From Candidatus Latescibacterota bacterium (GTDB lineage Bacteria; Latescibacterota; UBA2968; SICM01), in the NCBI GenBank assembly GCA_965217865.1, contig CBDCJO010000002.1, forward strand, positions 4,160,001-4,224,000: a stretch of DNA of 64,000 bases, given 5' to 3'. Shown piece by piece: positions 3,717 through 58,528 of this stretch. How positions within the stretch are numbered: the first letter of the stretch is position 1; each line of letters opens with the position of its first letter. Both the position numbers and the translations under genes were made by a program. The notes beneath the pieces are model-generated. The model was not told the DNA's origin, ran no database searches, and saw only the letters and a program-made list of their open reading frames with translations.

Positions 3717-5640
3717 GCTTCACAAAACAGAGAGATCGGGATCTCCGCCTGCTGCCTGCCTCTTACTTCCCGAAAACGCTTGGGAAGAAAAGACGGTTTT
3801 GCTATTTTGTTCCATAGTGGTTTTCCGCCCATCAAGTTATTCGATGGTTTTGATGTGGTTTTTTACGAATCATTCAGGATGATATCATGCAGATGACTTG
3901 GCCTCCATCGCATCACTTCGATCCAAGCAACGTTGGCGATCCGGAACGCTACGGTGGAATCGCGTGGACACAGTTCAACGAGCATTTCGAGGGCCTGTTG
4001 AACATCGAGTGGCGAAAGGTGAATGTGGGCACATCTTACCCGTGGTGGAGACGCCTGCTACGCAACGCCATCGTTCATCCAGTCTGGGATATCGTCACCC
4101 GATGGTCCTGGCGAGATGCCACTGAACGTTATATAACATGCGGCACAAAAGACAAGGCGGCCGTCCTGGCCGCCAAAAAAGTCTTCAGCCGGCTATTTGA
4201 GCTGAAGGAACCTTCTGAGATTGCAGAGAGACGCGAAGCGCTGGATGGAGACCTGGCGTGGAAGCAGGTGTTGGGGGAGCTGGGAGCGGCCTTTGGCACG
4301 GGCGGTCCCGTGCAATCCCACTTCGAACCCTATACTGCGCCAGCAGGTCCTGGGAAACGCGTACAGGGAGGTCGCGGGCGGGGCCACTGGCGCACCTACG
4401 ATGTAGCGGATGGGCTGGCGAACAACGATGTGCGGTCGATCTTTCAGGATCGTGAGGGGTATCTCTGGTTCGGCACGTCCGACGGCCTCAGCCGGTATGA
4501 CGGCCAGGAGTTTATCAATTTCACCACCGAAGACGGCTTAGCGGACAATATGATACGGTCGATCTTCCGGGATCGAGATGGGATTCTCTGGTTCGGCACC
4601 CGGGGTGGAGGTGTGAGTCGCTATGACGGTCGGGAATTCATCAACTTCACCACGGAAGATGGCCTGGCGGACAACAGAGTGTATTCAATCATTCAGGATC
4701 GAGAGGGGTATCTCTGGTTCGGCACCTGGGGTGGCGTCAGTCGCTATGATGGCCGGGAGTTTGTCAATTTCACTACGGAAGACGGCTTGGCGCACAACTG
4801 GGTGTGGGCGGCGCTTCAGGATCGAGAGGGGTATCTCTGGTTTGGCACCTATGGCGGCGGCGTCAGCCGGTATGATGGGCAGACGTTTACCACGTTCACG
4901 ACAGAAGATGGGCTGGTGGACAATCGAGTGGTTTCGATTTTTCAGGATCGTGAGGGGCTCCTCTGGTTTGGCATGGCAGCAGTCGAGGTGGGGGGTGCTG
5001 GGGGCGTGAGCCAGTATGATGGACAACACTTTACAACGTTTGTCACAGGAGATATACCCGGGAGCAATCAGGTGTGGTCGATTTTTCAGGATCGAGAGGG
5101 TGCTCTTTGGTTCGGCACCCTGGCCGGTGTATGCCGGTATGATGGGCAGGGGTTTACGACCTTCACCCCACAAGATGGTCTGGTAGCAAACCAGGTGCTC
5201 ACGATTTTTCAGGATCGAGAGGGTGCTCTCTGGTTCGGCACCCTGGGCGGTGTAAGTCGATATGATGTGCAGACCTGGACGATATTTACCACAGGAGATG
5301 GGCTGGGAGACAACACGGTGAGTTCGATTTTTCAGGATCGTAAGGGTGCTCTCTGGTTCGGGACCCCGGGTGGGGTCAGCCGATATGACGGGCAGAGCTG
5401 GACCACTTTCACCACAGAAGACGGGTTGGCGCATAATGCGGTGCAGTCAGTTTTTCAGGATCGAGAGGGTGCTCTCTGGTTCGGCACCCAGGTCGGTGTA
5501 AGCAGATATGATGGGCAGACCTGGATGGCATTTACCACCGCAGGCGGCCTGGCGGACAATTCTGTGCTCTCGATTTTTCAGGATAGGGAAGGAGATCTGT
5601 GGTTTGGCACTGAGGGCGGCGTCAGCCGATATGACGGACG

Positions 5641-5668
5641 GCCCCGTTCGACAAGCTCAGGGCAGGCC
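5641..5668 (+). repeat. REP-like palindromic element inserted in frame in a propeller repeat
   Basis: CCCCGTTCGACAAGCTCAGGGCAGGC adds 8 codons (RPRSTSSG) relative to sister repeats; similar to the intergenic CCCTTCGACAGGCTCAGGACAGGC at 49802. Confidence 0.65.
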
Positions 5669-6380
5669 TGGACAACGTTTACCACGGAAGATGGGCTGGT
5701 TACACGATAAGGTGCAGTCGATGGTACAGGACCGTGAGGGCGGTCTCTGGTTTGCAACAGCCGATGGCTTGAGCCGTTATGACGGTCGGGAGTTTACCAA
5801 CTTCACCACAGAAGACGGAATGGCAGACAACTGGGTATGGGCGGCGCTCCACGATCGGGAGGGTTATCTCTGGTGGGGGTGTGAGCCGGTATGATCCTCT
5901 GGCCCGTTCAGGAGAGACAGAGGGACAATTTATCAACTTCACCACAAAAGACGGGCTGGCGGACAATCAAGTGGTTTCGATTTCTCAAGATCTGCAGGGA
6001 CACATCTGGTTTGGCACCATGAGTGACGGCGTGAGTCGGTATGATGGGCGCTCCTTCCAGGCCATGAGCCGCCGGGACGGTCTTGCGAGCAATACGATAC
6101 GGTCGATTCTCCAGGACCGGGAGGGGAGTATCTGGTTCGGCACCCCGGGCTGCGGTGTGACCCGTTATCGTCCCCTGGCGCCTTCACCTCCTCCGGTTTC
6201 CATCCACACGGTGGTGGCCGACCGCCGCTACCAGGGGATGTCCGAACTGGCGCTTCCGTCTACGGTGGGGCTGATCGCTTTTGAGTTCGGAGCGCAAAGC
6301 TTCAAGACACGTCCGGAAGCGATGGTCTACCGGTATCGGCTGAGAGGCTACGGTGAGGACTGGAAGACCACACACACTAG

Positions 6381-8214
6381 TCCTAAAATAAGCGAATAGG
6401 CTTGTTGAGCGGTGTGTTATACAAGATTTCGGAGCATTTCAGACTTGTGACTTGGTGGAGATGATGTCTGGGCTGTTTTTGTGATTGTTTCGGCATGCGA
6501 TTGTCTAATTAACTGAGTTTGCGGACGTGTTTTAGCCGGGGTGGACGGACTTGTCCCTGTGATGTTACGACGACAGGTGCTGACATGGCAGTCAGGCCGG
6601 TTTGAGCCATCTGATTCTGTTCCAGGCCGGGAAGAAGTCAGTCATCCACCGGTTGTAGCCCAAGACACGATAGATGATCTGTCTTCCCCGGGTCACGATC
6701 TGGCAAGGGATCCAGATCAGATTCTGGAGGAAGGCGCGAAACTTCATTCTCAGAAGTTGATCGCGACGCTCACGCTTTCGGATCATCAACGCGAACCAGG
6801 CTTTGAGGTTCCACGCCAGGGCGGTCATGACCATGTAAGCCCAGTTGCTCATCAGGTTGTCGACGGGCATCCGCATGGCGTTGACCCCGTTCTTGAGTTG
6901 TTCAATCACGTTTTCCTGATCGCACCGTCGATTGGCCAGCCTCACGATTTCCGCGGCCGTAAGATCTTTTCGGGTGGTAATGTAGAAGAAATAGCGCTTG
7001 TCATCGAACAGGGCGTTTTCGCCGCGTTCGACGCTCAGGTTTTTTTCGAGGATCACGAGTCGACAGGTCTTCCTGCATCGAGCAGGACGATACGAAACCC
7101 CGGCAACACGTTCACTGGCAAGTCGGATGTTTTTGAAGCCGCGCTCCCGGATGATCCGGGCTTTCACGTTCTCGCGTTTCTGTCTCTGGGAGGTTTTGAC
7201 CTGGTATTTGGGTTGTCGTTCAAAGGGCTCCCAATCGCTCTGTGACAGGGATTTGGCGATCTTGACCAATCCCCGGTAAGCATCCATGCCGAAGACGAAG
7301 TCGACCTTTTCCGACCAACGATCGAAGTGCCGGGTGAGTGAGAAGCCGGTGTCTCCGCGCAGGCAGATGCGTTTGGCGAAAGGGGCGACCAGCGCGATGG
7401 CGCGATCGATCCACTTTACGGCACCGTCGTGGCTGGGCACATTGCCGGGTCGATTCACAAGAAACAACACCTCCCTGGTGTTCGCCAGAGAGACCACGAG
7501 AGGATGGTATCCCCAGATACCGTTGTATGACAGGGCCATGCCCTGCTTGCGTTCTCCGAGGGTGGTGGCCAGGGTGGCGTCGATGTCGATGAGGGCTTCT
7601 TTGAGTTCGCCCCTGGCGCGCTTTTTCCAGATCCGGGTGCGCACCCGGTTGATGCAATCCATCAACGTCTCGATATCCGATGGCCGGAAACGACGTGTAA
7701 AGTCGCCTGCTGTGGTCGGATCCGGGAGACGCTGAGCGCCCAAAGCGTTCAGGAACGTGGCATCCTGGCGGCGCAGCTCAATGTCTTCAAGGCGTTGACC
7801 ACCAACCAGCGCATTGTAGGCGATGTTCAGAACGTGGTCTGATTCGTGACAGGGCAAATGCACTTTCAAAAGATGAAGATGACGGTCAATCTCTTTCACC
7901 AGCCCAACCCTGCGGACCATGTGGTGAAACGCGCCGATCCCCCCACACGTGATCGCCTCGGCCTTCCCACTTATCTCGTAGTGGATGTTTCCCCCAGACA
8001 TCATAGGCTTGACCTGACTGCACCACTGCTTCCGACGCAAACGACGGACAATTCGTGCTTCCCTGTTCCGAAGAATCTTCCTATATTCTCTCATCTGAAA
8101 TGCCCCTTTTGATGGCCTCTTTTTGTCTTTCACACTACAACTATAGGCCTGAAAACTGGGGCATTTTCAACTTTTTTCTACTAAAACCAAGAAAAATTCA
8201 CGCTTGTATAGGGA
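6381..8214 (-). mobile_element. IS1380-family insertion sequence
   Basis: Imperfect 14-bp TIR (TCCTAAAATAAGCG / TCCCTATACAAGCG); CTAG duplicated at 6377-6380 and 8215-8218; the host frame is restored on removal. Confidence 0.85.
6592..8133 (-). CDS. IS1380-family DDE transposase
   Basis: 513 aa with IDIDAT, GYHPL, LRGDTGF and RCDQENVIEQLK motifs. Confidence 0.9.
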   Translation of the reverse strand: MKDKKRPSKGAFQMREYRKILRNREARIVRRLRRKQWCSQVKPMMSGGNIHYEISGKAEAITCGGIGAFHHMVRRVGLVKEIDRHLHLLKVHLPCHESDHVLNIAYNALVGGQRLEDIELRRQDATFLNALGAQRLPDPTTAGDFTRRFRPSDIETLMDCINRVRTRIWKKRARGELKEALIDIDATLATTLGERKQGMALSYNGIWGYHPLVVSLANTREVLFLVNRPGNVPSHDGAVKWIDRAIALVAPFAKRICLRGDTGFSLTRHFDRWSEKVDFVFGMDAYRGLVKIAKSLSQSDWEPFERQPKYQVKTSQRQKRENVKARIIRERGFKNIRLASERVAGVSYRPARCRKTCRLVILEKNLSVERGENALFDDKRYFFYITTRKDLTAAEIVRLANRRCDQENVIEQLKNGVNAMRMPVDNLMSNWAYMVMTALAWNLKAWFALMIRKRERRDQLLRMKFRAFLQNLIWIPCQIVTRGRQIIYRVLGYNRWMTDFFPAWNRIRWLKPA

Positions 8215-34920: not shown

Positions 34921-35411
34921 GTGGACGCACACATCAGAGTAGGCACAAAGGCCCTCATTCTTCGAGACGACGCCATTCTGCTTGTTGAATACAATGACGA
35001 ATCGGGAATCCACTACAACATGCCAGGAGGTGGGATTGAGCCCGATGAGACTTTGGAGGAAGTACTTATAAGAGAGGTGAAAGAAGAGACTTGCGCCGAA
35101 ATCGAAGTCGGTCGACCACTCATCATTACGGAGTACGAGCCGAAGAGAAACTCATTCTGGGGAGGCCCTCTCCACAAGCTCACAGTGATTTTCGAGTGCA
35201 GTCTCAAAGGTGGCAAAGAACCCCGAATGCCACAGACACCTGACCCCATCAGACAGCGGTCAAGTGGATCCCCCTGGTTGATCTCGAAAACGTGGAATTG
35301 CTTCCACACGTTACAGATAAAGTTCTGGCCTACGCGAACAAACAGACAACTCTCTACCCAATCTATCTATGCGAACCCATAAACCCCGACAAAGTTCAGA
35401 AGTACCTTTGA
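34921..35411 (+). pseudogene. NUDIX hydrolase, frameshift at ~35248
   Basis: Nudix box GGGIEPDETLEEVLIREVKEET; C-terminus continues in another frame (QTAVKWIPL...). Confidence 0.75.
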
Positions 35412-35748
35412 TGTTCTTTGAAGAAAATTGTAGTAGGAGCCCTATTACGTGGGTACTACCGGCTAACACGCGCTTGCGGCTCGTCCTGCCAGCCTAGTTT
35501 AAATATGGGAGGAGAGACTTCAGAATTGCTGGCGGATAGCACAAACTTAGCTGGTCTGAAAAGGCTTCTGTCTTCACGTCAAGCCTTATATGGACGACCG
35601 TTTCAAGCGGGTCGGCGCTACGAAACTCTGGGTTTGCCAACAACAACAAAGGGTTTGTATCCACCTCAATCTCTTCAGCTTTTACTTCGAGCTCCGTTTC
35701 CCAGGTGGGACTAAGGTTTTCCGCAGCACGAATGAAAAATGAACCTAG

Positions 35749-37274
35749 CAGCCTGTTGAAAAAGTGCGTTTATGCCAAGATGACTGTTGTCTTTCCTTGT
35801 GGTTTGGTCCTATGATATATCAGGTTCAAACTGAGAAGGGAGGACGAGCAAATGGCAATGGGAAAACGAGGACGACAGAGACAGGAAAACCTGTTCATCG
35901 CATCGAACACTTTGGTGAAATCTCCGGGTCATCCGTTCTACGAGAAGCTGAATCAGGTATTGGGGGCGAACGGCTTCGACGAGTTCGTCGAGGGGCTTTG
36001 CCAGCGGTATTACGCTCCTCATATGGGTCGCAAGGGCATTCCGCCCGGGGTTTATTTTCGGATGCTTTTGATTGGGTATTTCGAGGGACTTGATTCGGAA
36101 CGTGGGATCGAATGGCGTGTATCTGACTCGCTGACGTTGCGCCGGTTTTTGGGGTATGCCCTTGACGAACAGACCCCGGATCATTCCAGCCTGTCTCGCA
36201 TCCGGCATCGGCTTCCCTTGGAAGTTCACGAAGCGGTTTTCAAGTGGATCCTGAGGGTCTTGTGCAAAGCGGGTCTGGTGAAGGGGAAGACGTTGGGCGT
36301 GGATGCTACGACACTGGAGGCCAACGCCGCGATGCGCAGCATTGTACGCCGTGACACGGGTGAAGGCTACCAGGCATTCCTTGAGAATCTGGCCAAGGCC
36401 TCGGGCATTGAAACGCCTACCCGCGAGGACTTGTCCAAGATCGATAAGAAGCGACCGAAGAAGGGATCGAACCAGGACTGGGAGCACCCGCACGACCCGG
36501 ATGCCAAGATCGCTAAGATGAAGGACGGTCGCACGCACATGGCGCACAAGGTGGAGCACGCGGTGGATCTGGACACCAATGCCATTGTGGCAGTGGCGTT
36601 GTCGGGAGCAGATGAAGGAGATACCGAGTCGTTGCCCTGGACGCTGCTCGAGGCGCCGCTCAATCTCAAGCAGGTCGCGAAGGACGAAAAAGCTGCCAAA
36701 CGTTTGCACAGACAGCGTATACGGGAGGTGGTTGCGGACAAAGGATATCATAGCAACGATGTATTGACCAGTCTGAAGCAAGGCGGCATCCGGAGTTACA
36801 TTTCAGAACCGGATCGGGGACGCCGCAAGTGGAACGGCCGACGAGATGAGCAGGCCGCGGTATATGCGAATCGACGCCGGATCAAGGGAGATCGCGGCAA
36901 GGCCTTGCGCCGAAGTCGTGCAGAACGGGTGGAAAGAACCATCGCTCACACATATGATACCGGTGGCATGCGCAGGTTGCACTTGAGAGACCGCGGCAAT
37001 ATCCTCAAGCGTTTGCTGATCCACATCGGGGGCTGCAACCTGGCTCTGCTCATGCGCAAAGTGATGGGCGTAGGTACTCCGAAGGCCCTCCAGGACCTGG
37101 CCAAGGCCTTGCAGCGTCTACTGCTCGTCCTACAATCACGTTTGCTGCCCTCGGTCACCTTTTTAACCTCTTATCAGCGTCTCCTGCTCAATCTCCTTAC
37201 CTTGATTTATCTGACCCGCACTCCAGGCGTCTTTTCCGTTTATGTGCGTTGAAAGGTAGTTCTTCAACGGGCTG
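35749..37274 (+). mobile_element. IS1182/IS5-like IS, copy 3 (transposase 35852-37252)
   Basis: 1526-bp core flanked by CTAG on both sides. Confidence 0.9.
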
Positions 37275-37504
37275 CTAGGGGCTTTATCTCTCCCCAGACA
37301 ATTTTCTGTTCTCTGTGCCATCTTTGGGCCGCATCTGGACGATTCAAATGGTCCAGGATCACCCAAGTCATCGACATCGGGATATTGAATGTTACTCTAC
37401 CTTCTGACGGTGCTAGTTTAAATGTCAAAGCGCATGTGGGATTGGGCAGAGATTGGATGAAATCGACATATGCCTCCTGACTCACTGATCCGACTTTCAC
37501 CTGC

Positions 37505-39071
37505 TGTATCTATTCTGAGATAACAAGAGAAAAGCAGATAAAGGTCCAAGCAAGATTCAGGCAGCCTTGTGGATGGTCTGGGATGTTCTTTGCCGATTGA
37601 TTTCTATGCGGCGCTGCCGAGCCTCCTCCTTTCGACCTTGTCGGTGGTGAAGAATCTTTTGATGCTGGCCTTTATGCCTCTGAAGAGGCGTGACATACTG
37701 TATTGCCCCGTGATAGCGTTCGGCGTTGTAGCTGTGAATGAAGGAATCAATCAGGCCTTCCAGTTGATGGAATGTGAAGATGTCCTGGAAGCGCAGCCAG
37801 TCGTATTTGAATGTCCGGAAAAAGGCTTCGATCCAGGCGTTGTCCGTGGGTGTTTGATATCGGGCAAACAGCTGCGAGATGCCCAGGTCCTTGAAGAATT
37901 GGGCCATCGATTTGGCCTTCATCTGAGATCCGTGATCTGAGAGGGCTGTCAAGCTTATGGGCCCAGTGTCCAGGTCCAGCAGTCCTTCGTTGGCAAGGGC
38001 TTGATCCCAGGCCTGTTTGACCTGCTCCACGGTCGCGTTGAAGGAGAGCTTCCATCCTACGATCTTCCTGGAATACACGTCGAGAATGGCGGTAAAATAC
38101 AGGAACAAACCGAAAAATGGGATGTAGGTCAGGTCCCAGCTCCAGACCTGATTAGGACCTTCAGGTTTGACCTGGGGCTTGCTCTGCTTGACCGGCGTCC
38201 TCACCTGTTTCCTGCGTGCCAGACGTTCTTTCCTGGCCTGTCGGTAGAAGCTGGAGGCCGAGGCCTGCACTACCCCCTTCTCTGAGGCTACCACCGCCAG
38301 CTGATGGGGAGGCAGATCGGCATAGGTCTCATCCCTTAAGAGGGCCGGGATTTGCTCTTTCTCCTCCCTCAGCAATCCGTGTGGGGCCTCATCAGGGGCG
38401 GGCCCGGGCTTCCCATCCAAAAGCGGGTCCGACACCCCATCCAGCTTCTCTTCTCGATCTCGCCGGCTCCAGGCACAATACCGCTGGAGGGGAAGCTGTA
38501 GGATCTCGCAAGAACGGGTGAGTTTCACCCCTTTCTCCTTGGCCCGATGGACCATTAAGAGGATCTCGCGTTTGACCTCAGCTTGCACCCGGTGGCCCTT
38601 GATCGGGCCTGTCAGATCCCATTCACACTTTTTTTTAGCAGGGAAAGTTCCACAGATTGCTCAATGATCGTTTGCTCCAGGCGTGCCCGCTCTTTGCGCA
38701 GCTGCTCCACCTCCTCAGCCGATACCATCGGCTTGCGGCTCCGGCGACCCTTGAACTCCTTGAGGGCCCCGGACTTGACCGACTCACGAATACGCTTTAG
38801 ATCCGAGGAATGAATGCCCCATTTCCGCAGCACCTGTGCAATGGGAACATCTCCCCGGCTGGCTTCAAGGAAAATCTCATACTTCTGTTCCGGGGACAAG
38901 CTCCTGCGCTTCTTGACCGGGTCACTGTTTGAGGACAGTTGCTCCATCTTTACTCCTCCTGTGAGGTCAGGGATATCCCAAAATATGTATCCCTTCTCAA
39001 CCCTACAGGCAACCAGGATCTTGCTTCGACCTTGCCCCCGTTTTTTCGGGCGATCTCAGACAAAAGATACC
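37505..39071 (-). mobile_element. IS3-family IS
   Basis: ~50-bp imperfect TIR (TGTATCTATTCTGAGAT...AAGGTCCAAGCAAGAT vs GGTATCTTTTGTCTGAGAT...AAGGTCGAAGCAAGAT); 3-4 bp target duplication (C)TGC. Confidence 0.85.
37557..38947 (-). CDS. IS3 transposase OrfA (38612-38947) / OrfB (37557-38588) joined by -1 frameshift
   Basis: HTH OrfA; rve motifs WSWDLTY, SDHGSQ, DNAWIEAF; A8G slippery run at 38628-38636 followed by hairpin GGCCC..GGGCC. Confidence 0.88.
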
Positions 39072-39881
39072 TGCGTGCTGCTTCCCAATCCATTTGAAAT
39101 GAGCATTCCCATCAAATTCGCCAACTTGACGTGAAGTTTCTCCAAGCCCTTCAAGTGTTTCTGAACTTTTTCGGCAAATTCCTGATTTGCCGAAAGTCGT
39201 TGGTTCTTGCCAGCCATGTTCATCAACTCCTTTCTCAATCGGTTCCTGGAAGTATGGAGCTGATTGTTAACTTTCGTCACGGCGATCTCCAGGAAGGAGG
39301 CTATTTCCTTCTGAGAGAGCTCGGCGATATAGAAGAGAATCACAACAGTAAGTTCAGGCTCTGAAAGTGCTTCGATTGCGGTCAGCACCTCTTCTTTTCG
39401 ATTCCTTTCATCCAGAAGCTCGTCTGGACTTTTTTGGTCCGAGGCCACATCCCGGGCCTCATCTAATTGTTCAGTTGGAACTTGCTTTCCCCGAGTGAGC
39501 CGATCACACTGAGTCAAGATCACTCTGCGAAACCACCCTGGAAATGCGGAAGGCACTTTCAGGTTGCGTAGATTTACGAAGGCACCAATAAACGCTTCCT
39601 GAGCAGCATCTTGTGCCAAATGCCAATCCCTGAGTTGCGAGAAAGCAAAGGCCACTGCCATGTCCTGGAACCGCCGAACAATTGTGTCAAAAGCGTCCAG
39701 ATCGCCATTTTGAGCCCGAACTACGACGGCATCTAGCTCTTCCATCTCCCATCCTATCTTATTAGAAGGCCTTCTACGTATAAAGACCCAACCTGGCGCC
39801 AATAGCTTTATAGAGAACTTTCTATCATCTAAAAAGGCCCATCGCCAGTGCCCTCTTACAGGGAATGTAAGTAATTGTGCT

Positions 39882-50697: not shown

Positions 50698-52187
50698 TCA
50701 TTTTCTCCTTGCATTTTCCCATAGATGCCGAAACCCGTTCTGTTCTCTTCGCGTCAATATTTTCCATAGAATCAAATTATCCTTAAAATAATTCGAGTCA
50801 TTCAAATGATAATTTTTAAGGTAATTAAAAGATAAAGGCTTGACAAGTGGACCCATATTGTGTATATTATATACACACTTAAGGAGGTTCACAATGAACT
50901 TGTTTGATATTATGACCCGCTTTCCAGACCAGCAGTCATGCATCGATCATCTTGAAAGGATCAGGTTTGGAAACGAGCCTTACTGCCCGCTTTGCGGGGA
51001 TATGGACGTTGCTCGCAAGAAGGAACGAAACCTTGTGGGCCGTTGGAACTGCCACGGTTGCAATTCCAGCTTCAACGTATTGTCCAAGACCATCATGCAG
51101 AAAACGAAGGTGCCGCTTCAGAAGTGGTTCTGCGCAACGTGGTATTTATGTTTGTAATTCCCATAATAATATACCCAATACCAGCCAGGCCGTCAAGCCT
51201 TTATCTTTTAATTACCATTTTTAATTTCTTCAGGCGTTAATCGATCCTTAATTGAAAGATTGACTGGAAATTGTCCAATATTCCGAACATATCCCACTTG
51301 CATCTCTGGGCCAATTGAATAATTGATCCACTCTTCCGCAATGCGTATCATCTTCCGATTATTTTCTAAGGAGCAACCGATCATCCAATTATCCACCCAT
51401 CCGGTTACCCCTTCTTTAGGTTGCGAGAATTTCCAAACCTCCCCCCTTTTTTTAAGCTCATGAAAAGAAAAACCCCACGCTGTCGCCAGAGTAAGACCTT
51501 GTAATTGGTCGGCTTTATCAACACCTACCCAAAATGATTTTGCATTATGTGCAAGGATCTTCAAGTGATGTTGAAACTTTTCATTTTTTCTAAGAAATTC
51601 AAAGTCAAAGATCTGTTCCTTATTAAAACCTAAAGCAAGTGCGGTAATATAAATATTAGCCTCATGGTAATCGGAACTTATTATATAAGCACCAGCGTAT
51701 TTTTTTCCCAAAAAACATTCCAGCTTTTGGGTTCTTTTTTCACGAGACTTGTGTTGTAAGCAAGTCCATAAGGCCCATATACGATAGGGACACCATATAT
51801 CTTATCATCTTGTGTAATATATTCTGCCTTCTTTAAAGCAGGTATGATGTATTGATAATTCGGAATATTTTCCAGGTTAATTGGTAATACAAGCTTTCCG
51901 CGAATTAAATTCCATTGGTGTGATTTTGGAATGTTATGGGCCGGGCTAATAAGATCAACGTTTTTTGCTCGAATTTCATAAAAAAACTCTTTAGGATCGG
52001 AAACGTCTTTAACAACAACCTTTAAATCTATATCATATCTGTTTTTGATGAATTGTTCGAATTGTTTGGTATGCGTCCCTGGAGCGTATCCCTCCCAACA
52101 TAAAATCCTCAATTCTTCAGAATAACAATAGGGAGTAAGAACGATACAAAAAAACAGGATCACGATAAGTCGTGTTAAGATATGCAT
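50698..52187 (-). pseudogene. PotD/PotF-like ABC substrate-binding protein, frameshifted (~51705, T-run) and interrupted by an IS1595 derivative
   Basis: Signal peptide, LRILCWEGY, PKEGVTGWVDNW; removing the element restores EEIKNYHLND...ARRK*. Confidence 0.8.
50820..51216 (+). mobile_element. 397-bp internally deleted IS1595-family element (MITE-like)
   Basis: Perfect 25-bp TIR GGTAATTAAAAGATAAAGGCTTGAC; 8-bp TSD ATTTTTAA (50812-50819, 51217-51224); retains only the Zn-ribbon N-terminus (CPLC..CHGC, VPLQKWF) at 50894-51157. Confidence 0.9.
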
Positions 52188-56206: not shown

Positions 56207-58528
56207 GTGACTAATCAAATACCAAAGGAAGTAGCAAAACTACTAGATCGACTGGCAATAGGCTGTCAGAAAATCTTAAGTGATACATTTGTTGGTTTTT
56301 ACGTTCACGGTTCATTAACCATGGGATGTTTCAACTTTGAACAAAGTGACATTGATTTCTTAGTCGTCGTAAACGAACCTTTAGATAGGCAAACCAAGAA
56401 AGCATTAGCGGATATGTTGATTCAATTATCTGATGAGGCACCCCCTAAAGGATTTGAAATGAGTATTGTTCTGGAAAAGAACATGCAAAACTTCATTTAT
56501 CCAACGCCATTCGAATTACACTTTGGAGATAATCACATAGAGAAATATAAAGCTGATCCAAATTATTTATGTGAGAATGGAGAAGATCCGGACCTATCAG
56601 CCCGTTGAAGAACTACCTTTCAACGCACATAAACGGAAAAGACGCCTGGAGTGCGGGTCAGATAAATCAAGGTAAGGAGATTGAGCAGGAGACGCTGATA
56701 AGAGGTTAAAAAGGTGACCGAGGGCAGCAAACGTGATTGTAGGACGAGCAGTAGACGCTGCAAGGCCTTGGCCAGGTCCTGGAGGGCCTTCGGAGTACCT
56801 ACGCCCATCACTTTGCGCATGAGCAGAGCCAGGTTGCAGCCCCCGATGTGGATCAGCAAACGCTTGAGGATATTGCCGCGGTCTCTCAAGTGCAACCTGC
56901 GCATGCCACCGGTATCATATGTGTGAGCGATGGTTCTTTCCACCCGTTCTGCACGACTTCGGCGCAAGGCCTTGCCGCGATCTCCCTTGATCCGGCGTCG
57001 ATTCGCATATACCGCGGCCTGCTCATCTCGTCGGCCGTTCCACTTGCGGCGTCCCCGATCCGGTTCTGAAATGTAACTCCGGATGCCGCCTTGCTTCAGA
57101 CTGGTCAATACATCGTTGCTATGATATCCTTTGTCCGCAACCACCTCCCGTATACGCTGTCTGTGCAAACGTTTGGCAGCTTTTTCGTCCTTCGCGACCT
57201 GCTTGAGATTGAGCTGCGCCTCGAGCAGCGTCCAGGGCAACGACCCGGTATCTCCTTCATCTGCTCCCGACAACGCCACTGCCACAATGGCATTGGTGTC
57301 CAGATCCACCGCGTGCTCCACCTTGTGCGCCATGTGCGTGCGACCGTCCTTCATCTTAGCGATCTTGGCATCCGGGTCGTGCGGGTGCTCCCAGTCCTGG
57401 TTCGATCCCTTCTTCGGTCGCTTCTTATCGATCTTGGACAAGTCCTCGCGGGTAGGCGTTTCAATGCCCGAGGCCTTGGCCAGATTCTCAAGGAATGCCT
57501 GGTAGCCTTCACCCGTGTCACGGCGTACAATGCTGCGCATCGCGGCGTTGGCCTCCAGTGTCGTAGCATCCACGCCCAACGTCTTCCCCTTCACCAGACC
57601 CGCTTTGCACAAGACCCTCAGGATCCACTTGAAAACCGCTTCGTGAACTTCCAAGGGAAGCCGATGCCGGATGCGAGACAGGCTGGAATGATCCGGGGTC
57701 TGTTCGTCAAGGGCATACCCCAAAAACCGGCGCAACGTCAGCGAGTCAGATACACGCCATTCGATCCCACGTTCCGAATCAAGTCCCTCGAAATACCCAA
57801 TCAAAAGCATCCGAAAATAAACCCCGGGCGGAATGCCCTTGCGACCCATATGAGGAGCGTAATACCGCTGGCAAAGCCCCTCGACGAACTCGTCGAAGCC
57901 GTTCGCCCCCAATACCTGATTCAGCTTCTCGTAGAACGGATGACCCGGAGATTTCACCAAAGTGTTCGATGCGATGAACAGGTTTTCCTGTCTCTGTCGT
58001 CCTCGTTTTCCCATTGCCATTTGCTCGTCCTCCCTTCTCAGTTTGAACCTGATATATCATAGGACCAAACCACAAGGAAAGACAATAGTCATCTTGGCAT
58101 AAACGCACTTTTTCAACAGGCTGCTAGCCGCACACGCAATGATTACAAAAGAACGTGGGTTGTGCCTTCTTAGTAAACCCATCAGTGAAGTATTTTTCAA
58201 TATTCCGAAAAAATACTATTTGAATTCTATTATTCACGACTCTAGATGGAGTTTTGATAACATCTCCAAAGGTCCAGATTCTGGAACATGTTCTGTACCA
58301 ATGTATGGCGTATTGAATTTTTGCAGAGCACTTGCATTCACTAATAATGGACTAATTACATCAAAACATGAAGGTGGACAATGGGGACTGAAAAATCTTC
58401 CAAAAGAATACTCAGAACTCATCCAACAGGCCTTAAACAAATATTCAGGTGGTAAAAATGCTCAAGAAGTAGAAGCGTCTACACTTAAGAAGTTTGCTAT
58501 TTATGCTATTAATAGATTAGGATCATAA
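56207..58528 (+). pseudogene. AadA/ANT-like aminoglycoside nucleotidyltransferase (NTase + DUF4111), interrupted by IS copy 4
   Basis: HGSL...SDIDFL; IS removal restores EDPDLAAHAMITKERG; LNFCR..SKHEGGQW. Confidence 0.85.
56598..58123 (-). mobile_element. IS1182/IS5-like IS, copy 4 (transposase 56620-58020)
   Basis: 1526-bp core; clean insertion in a CTAG. Confidence 0.9.

Follow-up and report, generated by a model that had tools for sequence, protein, structure and literature searches.

Introduction

In the accessible parts of the literature, tailed extracytoplasmic function (ECF) sigma factors combine a sigma2-sigma4 core with a soluble fused tail, have no conserved anti-sigma neighbour and possess a promoter of their own (PMC7826278, PMC8999054), and the tails of ECF41 and ECF42 control the sigma factor that bears them (PMC8999054). 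The gene discussed here lies in a stretch of 64,000 nucleotides (the window) of contig CBDCJO010000002.1, positions 4,160,001 to 4,224,000, from a Candidatus Latescibacterota bacterium, and encodes an ECF sigma factor fused to the middle domain of the flagellar protein FliM. It shares these features, its self-promoter being a predicted one, but differs from the tailed ECFs in the accessible part of PMC7826278 in the identity of the tail and in a predicted internal start, apparently under selection, at the fusion point. That part of the source also reports one tail type per group, whereas here one core clade carries many unrelated tails; the later group descriptions in its supplement may cover this clade, and the -10 motif GGG(T/A)C described below was not found in the part of that supplement available.

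A second likeness is to the ECF sigma factors of Planctomycetes, which, in the part of the source at hand, show a conserved core with tails of diverse origin (PMC7671368). Unlike those tails, the one considered here is old, conserved and, as sequence comparison suggests, under selection; FliM, PF02154, FliG_C and FHIPEP were not found in the accessible part of that paper's supplement. The tail itself resembles the FliM middle domain (PDB 2HP7, 4GC8) in fold, in spanning the full domain, in matching PF02154 and in nesting with the FliMs of the host's class, but differs from FliM in lacking the GGxG loop, the CheY-binding peptide and the SPOA domain. With the phosphatases CheC, CheX and FliY it shares the alpha/beta/alpha fold, but it scores structurally nearer to FliM and has no conserved E-x-x-N.

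No description of an ECF-FliM fusion was found in the literature searched, which consisted of papers available without subscription. The anti-sigma factor of FliA we take to be FlgM. It is for this factor that PMC7406223, a candidate report that was set aside, uses the name 'FliM' in its accessible part.

Structure of the interrupted gene

The fusion gene is cut into three pieces by two mobile elements (Table 1). The initial annotation had proposed that removal of an IS3 element and of a further insertion sequence (IS) copy restores an uninterrupted frame of 383 amino acids, and this was confirmed: excision of both elements with one target duplication each leaves 1152 nucleotides, or 383 codons and a stop, running from 39745 to 35494 on the minus strand and free of internal stops. 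The FliM motifs quoted in that annotation are all present, and Pfam on the separate pieces, a profile match to Helicobacter pylori FliM and a fold search bear out its reading of an ECF sigma factor fused to a FliM middle domain. In this Pfam search the first half of the tail domain is matched at E 1.8e-6, and the second half at E 0.009, below the cut-off by itself.

The ends of the IS3-family element (1565 bp) were set by 34 genome matches longer than 1400 nucleotides and 99.3-100% identical. The element has orfA and orfB, a DDE integrase, a TG end and a short target duplication, and it scores 172.5 against NF033516 (cut-off 160); its right end is without the final CA. The majority of its other copies are bounded by 4-bp duplications, a reading that would here break the frame at residue 252; the 5-bp reading alone keeps the frame, and the intact orthologues bear it out. 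The second, IS1182-like element (1526 bp) has 90 genome matches above 1400 nucleotides and is copy 3 of five in the window; the best family for its transposase is NF033551, at 162.7 and thus under the cut-off of 270. These 34 and 90 near-full matches, with five IS1182-like copies in the window, reflect a recent IS expansion in the genome.

Two intact orthologues of 383 amino acids, P0002 and P0003, carry sigma2, sigma4 and PF02154, are 78-79% identical to the N-terminal piece and align to the spliced frame without gaps over both junctions. With the target duplications they rule out an artefactual splice. The intact homologues are single genes, contrary to the refuting case named at first annotation, in which they would always be two separate ones. 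In the sequencing runs, a contig of run X1 joins 37498 to 39069 and represents an IS3-free allele, to which it lends weak support, its short side being 24 letters and the run perhaps that of the source sample. A contig of run X3, in which pieces 2 and 3 are joined and the IS1182-like element is missing, was rejected as an allele of this strain (about 80% identical on one side, depth 2.6).

This genome's copy is a pseudogene, from which only the tail-less product of 229 amino acids can be made. Its inactivation is recent, because the frame, the predicted promoter and the start signals are undamaged. The IS3 element is co-directional with the sigma gene, so that the tail-less sigma could drive transcription of the transposase from its own promoter.

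Table 1. Features of the fusion gene and its surroundings, in window coordinates
Feature	Position	Strand	Description
Predicted -35 TAAAGC	39805..39810	-	precedes the conserved -10 by 15 nt; its fifth base varies together with a residue in a helix of sigma4
Predicted -10 GGGTC	39785..39789	-	motif enriched in clade upstream regions
12-bp palindrome	39764..39775	.	near the predicted transcription start, just after the -10
Gene piece 1	39075..39745	-	start codon, sigma2 (residues 22-80), sigma4 (118-170), junction, first helix of FliM domain; now the 229-aa truncated product (P0001)
Predicted internal start	39215..39233	-	Met177 codon 39215-39217, preceded by a ribosome-binding site at 39227-39233; a 207-aa tail protein is predicted to start here
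IS3-family element	37505..39069	-	orfA 38612-38947, orfB 37557-38588; duplication CCTGC (5 bp) at 37500-37504 and 39070-39074
Gene piece 2	37279..37504	-	first half of FliM middle domain; PF02154 profile 42-93, E 1.8e-6
IS1182-like element	35749..37274	+	transposase 35852-37252; duplication CTAG at 35745-35748 and 37275-37278
Gene piece 3	35494..35748	-	second half of FliM middle domain and stop; PF02154 profile 120-191; aligns to the P0002/P0003 C-terminus

The FliM-derived tail

The initial annotation described the tail as FliM/CheC-like. The FliM identity held up, whereas the likeness to CheC exists at the level of the fold only. PF02154 alone matches the tail in Pfam, and no SnoaL-like or TPR extension of the kind found in ECF41/ECF56 and ECF42 was detected. 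An AlphaFold2 model of P0003 (23 sequences, pLDDT 75) has FliM middle domains as its best fold matches (E 7e-12, target TM 0.80-0.83), with FliY, CheC and CheX lower in the same search (FliY and CheC at TM 0.66-0.72), and the family profile matches H. pylori FliM at 1e-21. The tail is nevertheless only about 25% identical to the host's FliM and reaches 59 bits against TIGR01397, with a cut-off of 219.6.

In a tree of 69 rows, for which the fused domains were thinned from 47 to 32 at less than 60% identity, these 32 domains and two other fusions form one branch (SH-aLRT 98). It nests within those FliMs that come from the host's class (100), and the FliMs of other classes and phyla fall outside. 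The tree came from a quick search and has long branches; a single origin of the fused domains was not rejected (p-AU 0.51). The tail thus descends from the FliM of this lineage. FliM-domain matches number up to eight per genome in the host's class, against one in other classes of the phylum. Genes for a stand-alone FliM middle domain of about 190 amino acids, with their own ribosome-binding site and no GGxG, occur in the same class (L183, L197, L201, L202, L203), as do fusions to another N-terminal domain (L198, L204); four of these seven loci share an upstream GTTAC(C/T)-T-tract. Full FliM paralogues with an N-terminal domain that appears receiver-like by eye were seen at L016, L175, L180 and L206.

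Could the protein still join the flagellar C-ring through FliG, or be a CheC-type phosphatase of phosphorylated CheY (CheY-P) wired to a sigma factor? The FliM/CheC fold and the flagellated host speak for such a role. The E-x-x-N pattern, which we take to be the catalytic motif of CheC, CheX and FliY, is scattered over 7 of the 47 fused domains, is not conserved and does not occur in this protein. A pattern for the N-terminal CheY-binding peptide, derived from canonical FliMs, occurs in one of 46 fused proteins, at residue 303 and so inside the domain; SPOA is absent, and in 43 of the 46 the protein stops no more than 10 residues from the domain boundary. The GGXG motif, conserved in the FliM middle domain at the FliG contact according to the accessible part of PMC4642947, is found at the homologous site in 28/28 canonical FliMs and in none of the 47 fused domains (one has a match elsewhere). 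Because the GGxG loop, the CheY-binding peptide and SPOA are lost, the tail, judged by its sequence, is not a C-ring subunit, nor is it a phosphatase of the CheC type, and a role of that kind is very improbable. The same losses weaken the suggestion in the initial annotation of a FliG-like or CheY-like partner; FliG or a tethered CheY-P is an unlikely one.

What the fused domains retain looks like residues of the core. His205 and Tyr370 are invariant (44/44) and Trp315 nearly so (43/44). For the one pair formed with the G097 orthologue, dN/dS (Nei-Gojobori) is 0.24 for the tail, 0.16 for sigma4 and 0.47 for sigma2, values that indicate purifying selection on the tail. They bear on the proposal that the tail is a mere passenger, acquired by chance capture of a downstream gene and of no effect on sigma. 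Fortuitous capture has been proposed for Planctomycetes ECFs in the part of PMC7671368 available, FliM paralogues are abundant in the host's class, three of nine copies are broken and the FliM-tailed cores are not one clade (see below). Against this stand the tail's dN/dS, the two invariant residues and the 32 fused domains, which at less than 60% identity preserve the complete fold and fit a single origin; we consider a passenger tail quite improbable.

The sigma core and its exchangeable tails

The core matches PF04542 and PF08281 above cut-off, has no other sigma regions and scores 81.4 against TIGR02937 (cut-off 42.9), which places it among the ECF (group 4) sigma factors; none of the named NCBIfam sigma subfamilies was matched at its cut-off. 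The initial annotation missed the variety of tails borne by the clade to which this core belongs. The clade spans more than ten phylum labels and is recognised by a linker, M-x(8-10)-RPS.D..F, that follows sigma4; its tails include, by precomputed Pfam, ankyrin, PheS-like, glyoxalase, T2SS E/F, receiver, FliG-C and other domains. The host has several such ECFs, one of them with a FliG-C tail, and in G097 ECFs with FlhA-C, FliM (twice) and FliG-C tails lie within 17 kb. FliM-tailed cores cluster but require 9 changes in a tree of 441 rows and 10, at least two of them forced, in one of 69 rows, so that a single origin of these cores is unsupported. Since the cores are not one clade, tails have been exchanged.

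Long-tailed ECFs of the host lie at G000:C2:2600666-2601583 and, on the same contig, at 190760, 680471, 4558900, 1437637, 4551255 and 4225018. One tail is FliG-C by Pfam, and others appear by eye PheS-like (two), DUF151-like, TPR-like and glyoxalase-like, the last on a sigma part that seems cut short. FliG-C (PF01706), with 13 matches in G000:C2, is a loose module that also stands alone; by eye it is fused to a MotA-like helical part at 4233220-4234014 and 2803570-2804241, and follows an aldo-keto-reductase-like frame at 4229257-4229922.

Family size and distribution

Two word-index searches and one profile search yielded 354 proteins. A hidden Markov model (HMM) built from 28 canonical FliMs only matched 47 of these, of which 46 also have the sigma core and 43 a domain longer than 140 amino acids. 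The 168 genomes searched in the host's phylum yielded full-length matches to the fusion in at least five other genomes and at least eight copies, lower bounds since 11 candidates were scored per genome. Two copies contain a TAG stop; as the stops lie at differing places, they were taken as ordinary nonsense changes rather than as sites of read-through. Outside the phylum the fusion was seen in none of 50 genomes that carry the sigma clade, and among 80 named loci of the clade a FliM tail occurs only in L071 (Candidatus Latescibacterota).

Canonical fliM and flagellin genes accompany the fusion in each of the six carrier genomes, the host, for which the initial annotation left the matter to be checked, having fliM, fliG and flagellin; in the 101 genomes that lack an intact canonical fliM no fusion was found. 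G019 and G127, considered as non-flagellated carriers, were rejected, their weak matches being N-terminal pieces of canonical fliM. Because of this co-occurrence, a flagellum-linked partner would be the most likely one for the FliM-tailed subfamily. The alternative is that the tail regulates sigma as a re-purposed generic binding scaffold for a ligand or partner unconnected with flagella. Loss of every known motor contact motif, the long branches, the many non-flagellar tails on the same core and the lack of flagellar genes nearby all favour a scaffold; the 0/101 count argues against it, as does the capture of several different flagellar domains, which can cluster. On balance we judge it unlikely.

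The eight regions compared share no conserved neighbourhood, bar a weak epimerase match (29.6%) in two, and no conserved neighbouring anti-sigma gene; no flagellar genes were found nearby. A sigma-like frame, possibly fliA, lies directly before canonical fliM, and separate from it, at L159:527-1327 (G195). The host genome has a CheckM-type contamination figure of 9.3%, and its fliM and fliG are duplicated.

Predicted self-promoter

Of the clade's 94 distinct upstream regions, 50 contain the motif GGG(A/T/G)C at 25-85 nucleotides before the start; in 200 shuffles the number averaged 3.5 and never exceeded 8. A -35 element lies fifteen bases further upstream. Its fifth base is C in 33/33 genes whose position 160 in sigma4 is Lys and in 0/10 where it is Asn, a count in which three rows have no helix match, four have other residues, kin are not independent and the Asn rows span four phylum labels. 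The gene described here combines Asn160 with TAAAGC-N15-GGGTC. By alignment, position 160 presumably corresponds to Arg171 of RpoE. Arg171 of RpoE sets the -31 base (PMC7776599, in the part available). Enrichment and covariation together point to a bipartite promoter matched to the specificity residue of sigma4, and autoregulation through this predicted self-promoter is strongly inferred. The palindrome just after the -10 is possibly an operator: its 10-bp core is exact in 22/94 clade upstream regions, and the 12-mer occurs twice in the genome, each time before an ECF gene of the clade. A search of the host genome with the K-type promoter pattern gave 59 matches against 35-44 in shuffles and nothing usable.

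Predicted internal start

A Met lies within ten residues of the end of sigma4 in 81 of 100 clade genes. Upstream of this Met, the median energy of pairing with the anti-Shine-Dalgarno sequence is -5.9 kcal/mol, whereas 756 other Met codons give -2.9. The pairing is stronger than synonymous codons would lead one to expect in 59/81; in this gene the duplex reaches -10.6, against an expected -4.7 kcal/mol. The Arg three codons before the Met is encoded by AGG in 42/42 cases from 11 phylum labels, compared with 188/2541 (7.4%) elsewhere. Seven of nine FliM-tail loci pair at -5.8 or stronger, one at -3.0 and one at -1.5 (scored at a later Met), and 41/44 fused proteins have a Met at the start of the tail. 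Members from Acidobacteria are without both the Met and the binding site. On these grounds an internal start is strongly inferred, from which a free tail of 207 amino acids is probably made. The site could alternatively be read as one of ribosome pausing, but pausing would need no Met. The one-component sigma factor envisaged at first annotation is an incomplete description in this respect, since the conserved ribosome-binding site and Met suggest that the tail is also made alone.

A free tail would also be expected if the tail were the output of the system, that is, if a self-activating sigma yielded a burst of free FliM-middle-domain protein that interfered with C-ring assembly or switching, either as a decoy or by braking it. 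The internal start signal, a promoter found essentially only before the ECF genes themselves, and the stand-alone FliM-middle-domain genes of the same class (L183, L197, L201-L203), with the same boundaries and likewise no GGxG, would suit such a burst. It would, however, not require the fusion to be kept in frame; most stand-alone copies lie outside the fused clade, and the fused domains are far from the host FliM and have lost its invariant surface residues. We therefore regard an output role as improbable.

Proposed mechanism

We favour, tentatively and with somewhat less than even confidence, a picture in which the intact sigma factor is likely to be self-transcribing and controlled by its tail, the tail probably being present both fused and free and probably binding a flagellum-linked partner. 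In the simplest history, an ECF gene would have fused in frame to the regulator gene that lay downstream of it, and selection would have preserved the second start. Fused or free, the tail would hold sigma, and binding of the partner would release it. The hold may lie in the first helix and in the short conserved stretch that follows Met177 (RPS.D..F), which would together keep sigma inactive much like a fused anti-sigma gene; a partner on the FliM fold, either FliM itself or a protein that docks on FliM, might shift this hold and let the positive loop fire.

Several observations weigh against this picture. AlphaFold2 models give no confident packing of tail against sigma (pTM 0.49 and 0.51; junction pLDDT below 50). 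Within the host genome the N-type promoter pattern has 19 matches, against 12-15 in three shuffles, and yielded no regulon and no flagellar target. The same sigma clade bears many non-flagellar tails, so that the flagellar link may be incidental, and co-occurrence with flagella comes from six related genomes. The selection estimate derives from one gene pair, and three of the nine copies in the genomes searched, this one included, are broken. Finally, the fused domains do not retain surface residues that never vary in FliM, such as Asn148 and the Arg of alpha1, and even a FliM-FliM contact is therefore doubtful.

A broader proposal goes beyond this gene: the clade would represent an undescribed cross-phylum ECF cassette of self-promoter, sigma core, internal ribosome-binding site, linker peptide and exchangeable tail, in effect a sigma factor and its own anti-sigma in one frame, and in flagellated Latescibacterota FliM-M, FliG-C and FlhA-C would have been captured as sensors of the state of the flagellar machine. 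This we regard as conceivable but rather doubtful.

Other features of the window

A NUDIX gene at 34921-35382 is convergent with the sigma gene and apparently frameshifted near its 3' end; the sequencing runs show variants in it around 35276-35303. At 56207-58525, IS copy 4 immediately precedes a frame of 129 amino acids that matches AadA_C (the C-terminal part of aminoglycoside adenylyltransferase), and apparently splits that gene. Repeats of 123-126 bp at 3887-6396 correspond to Reg_prop propeller repeats; they extend over two successive frames that are probably a single frameshifted gene. Perfect 25-bp inverted repeats 347 bp apart at 50820-51216 resemble a small non-autonomous element.

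Conclusions

The fusion adds a new tail type to the ECF sigma factors and represents the reuse of a motor domain in transcription control. With a predicted promoter and a predicted internal start, the system could be tested in E. coli with one gene and one reporter, and it bears on the question, open in the accessible part of PMC7671368, of whether shuffled ECF tails regulate anything. If the tail does read the flagellum, it would constitute a link from motor to gene expression that is separate from FlgM and FliA.

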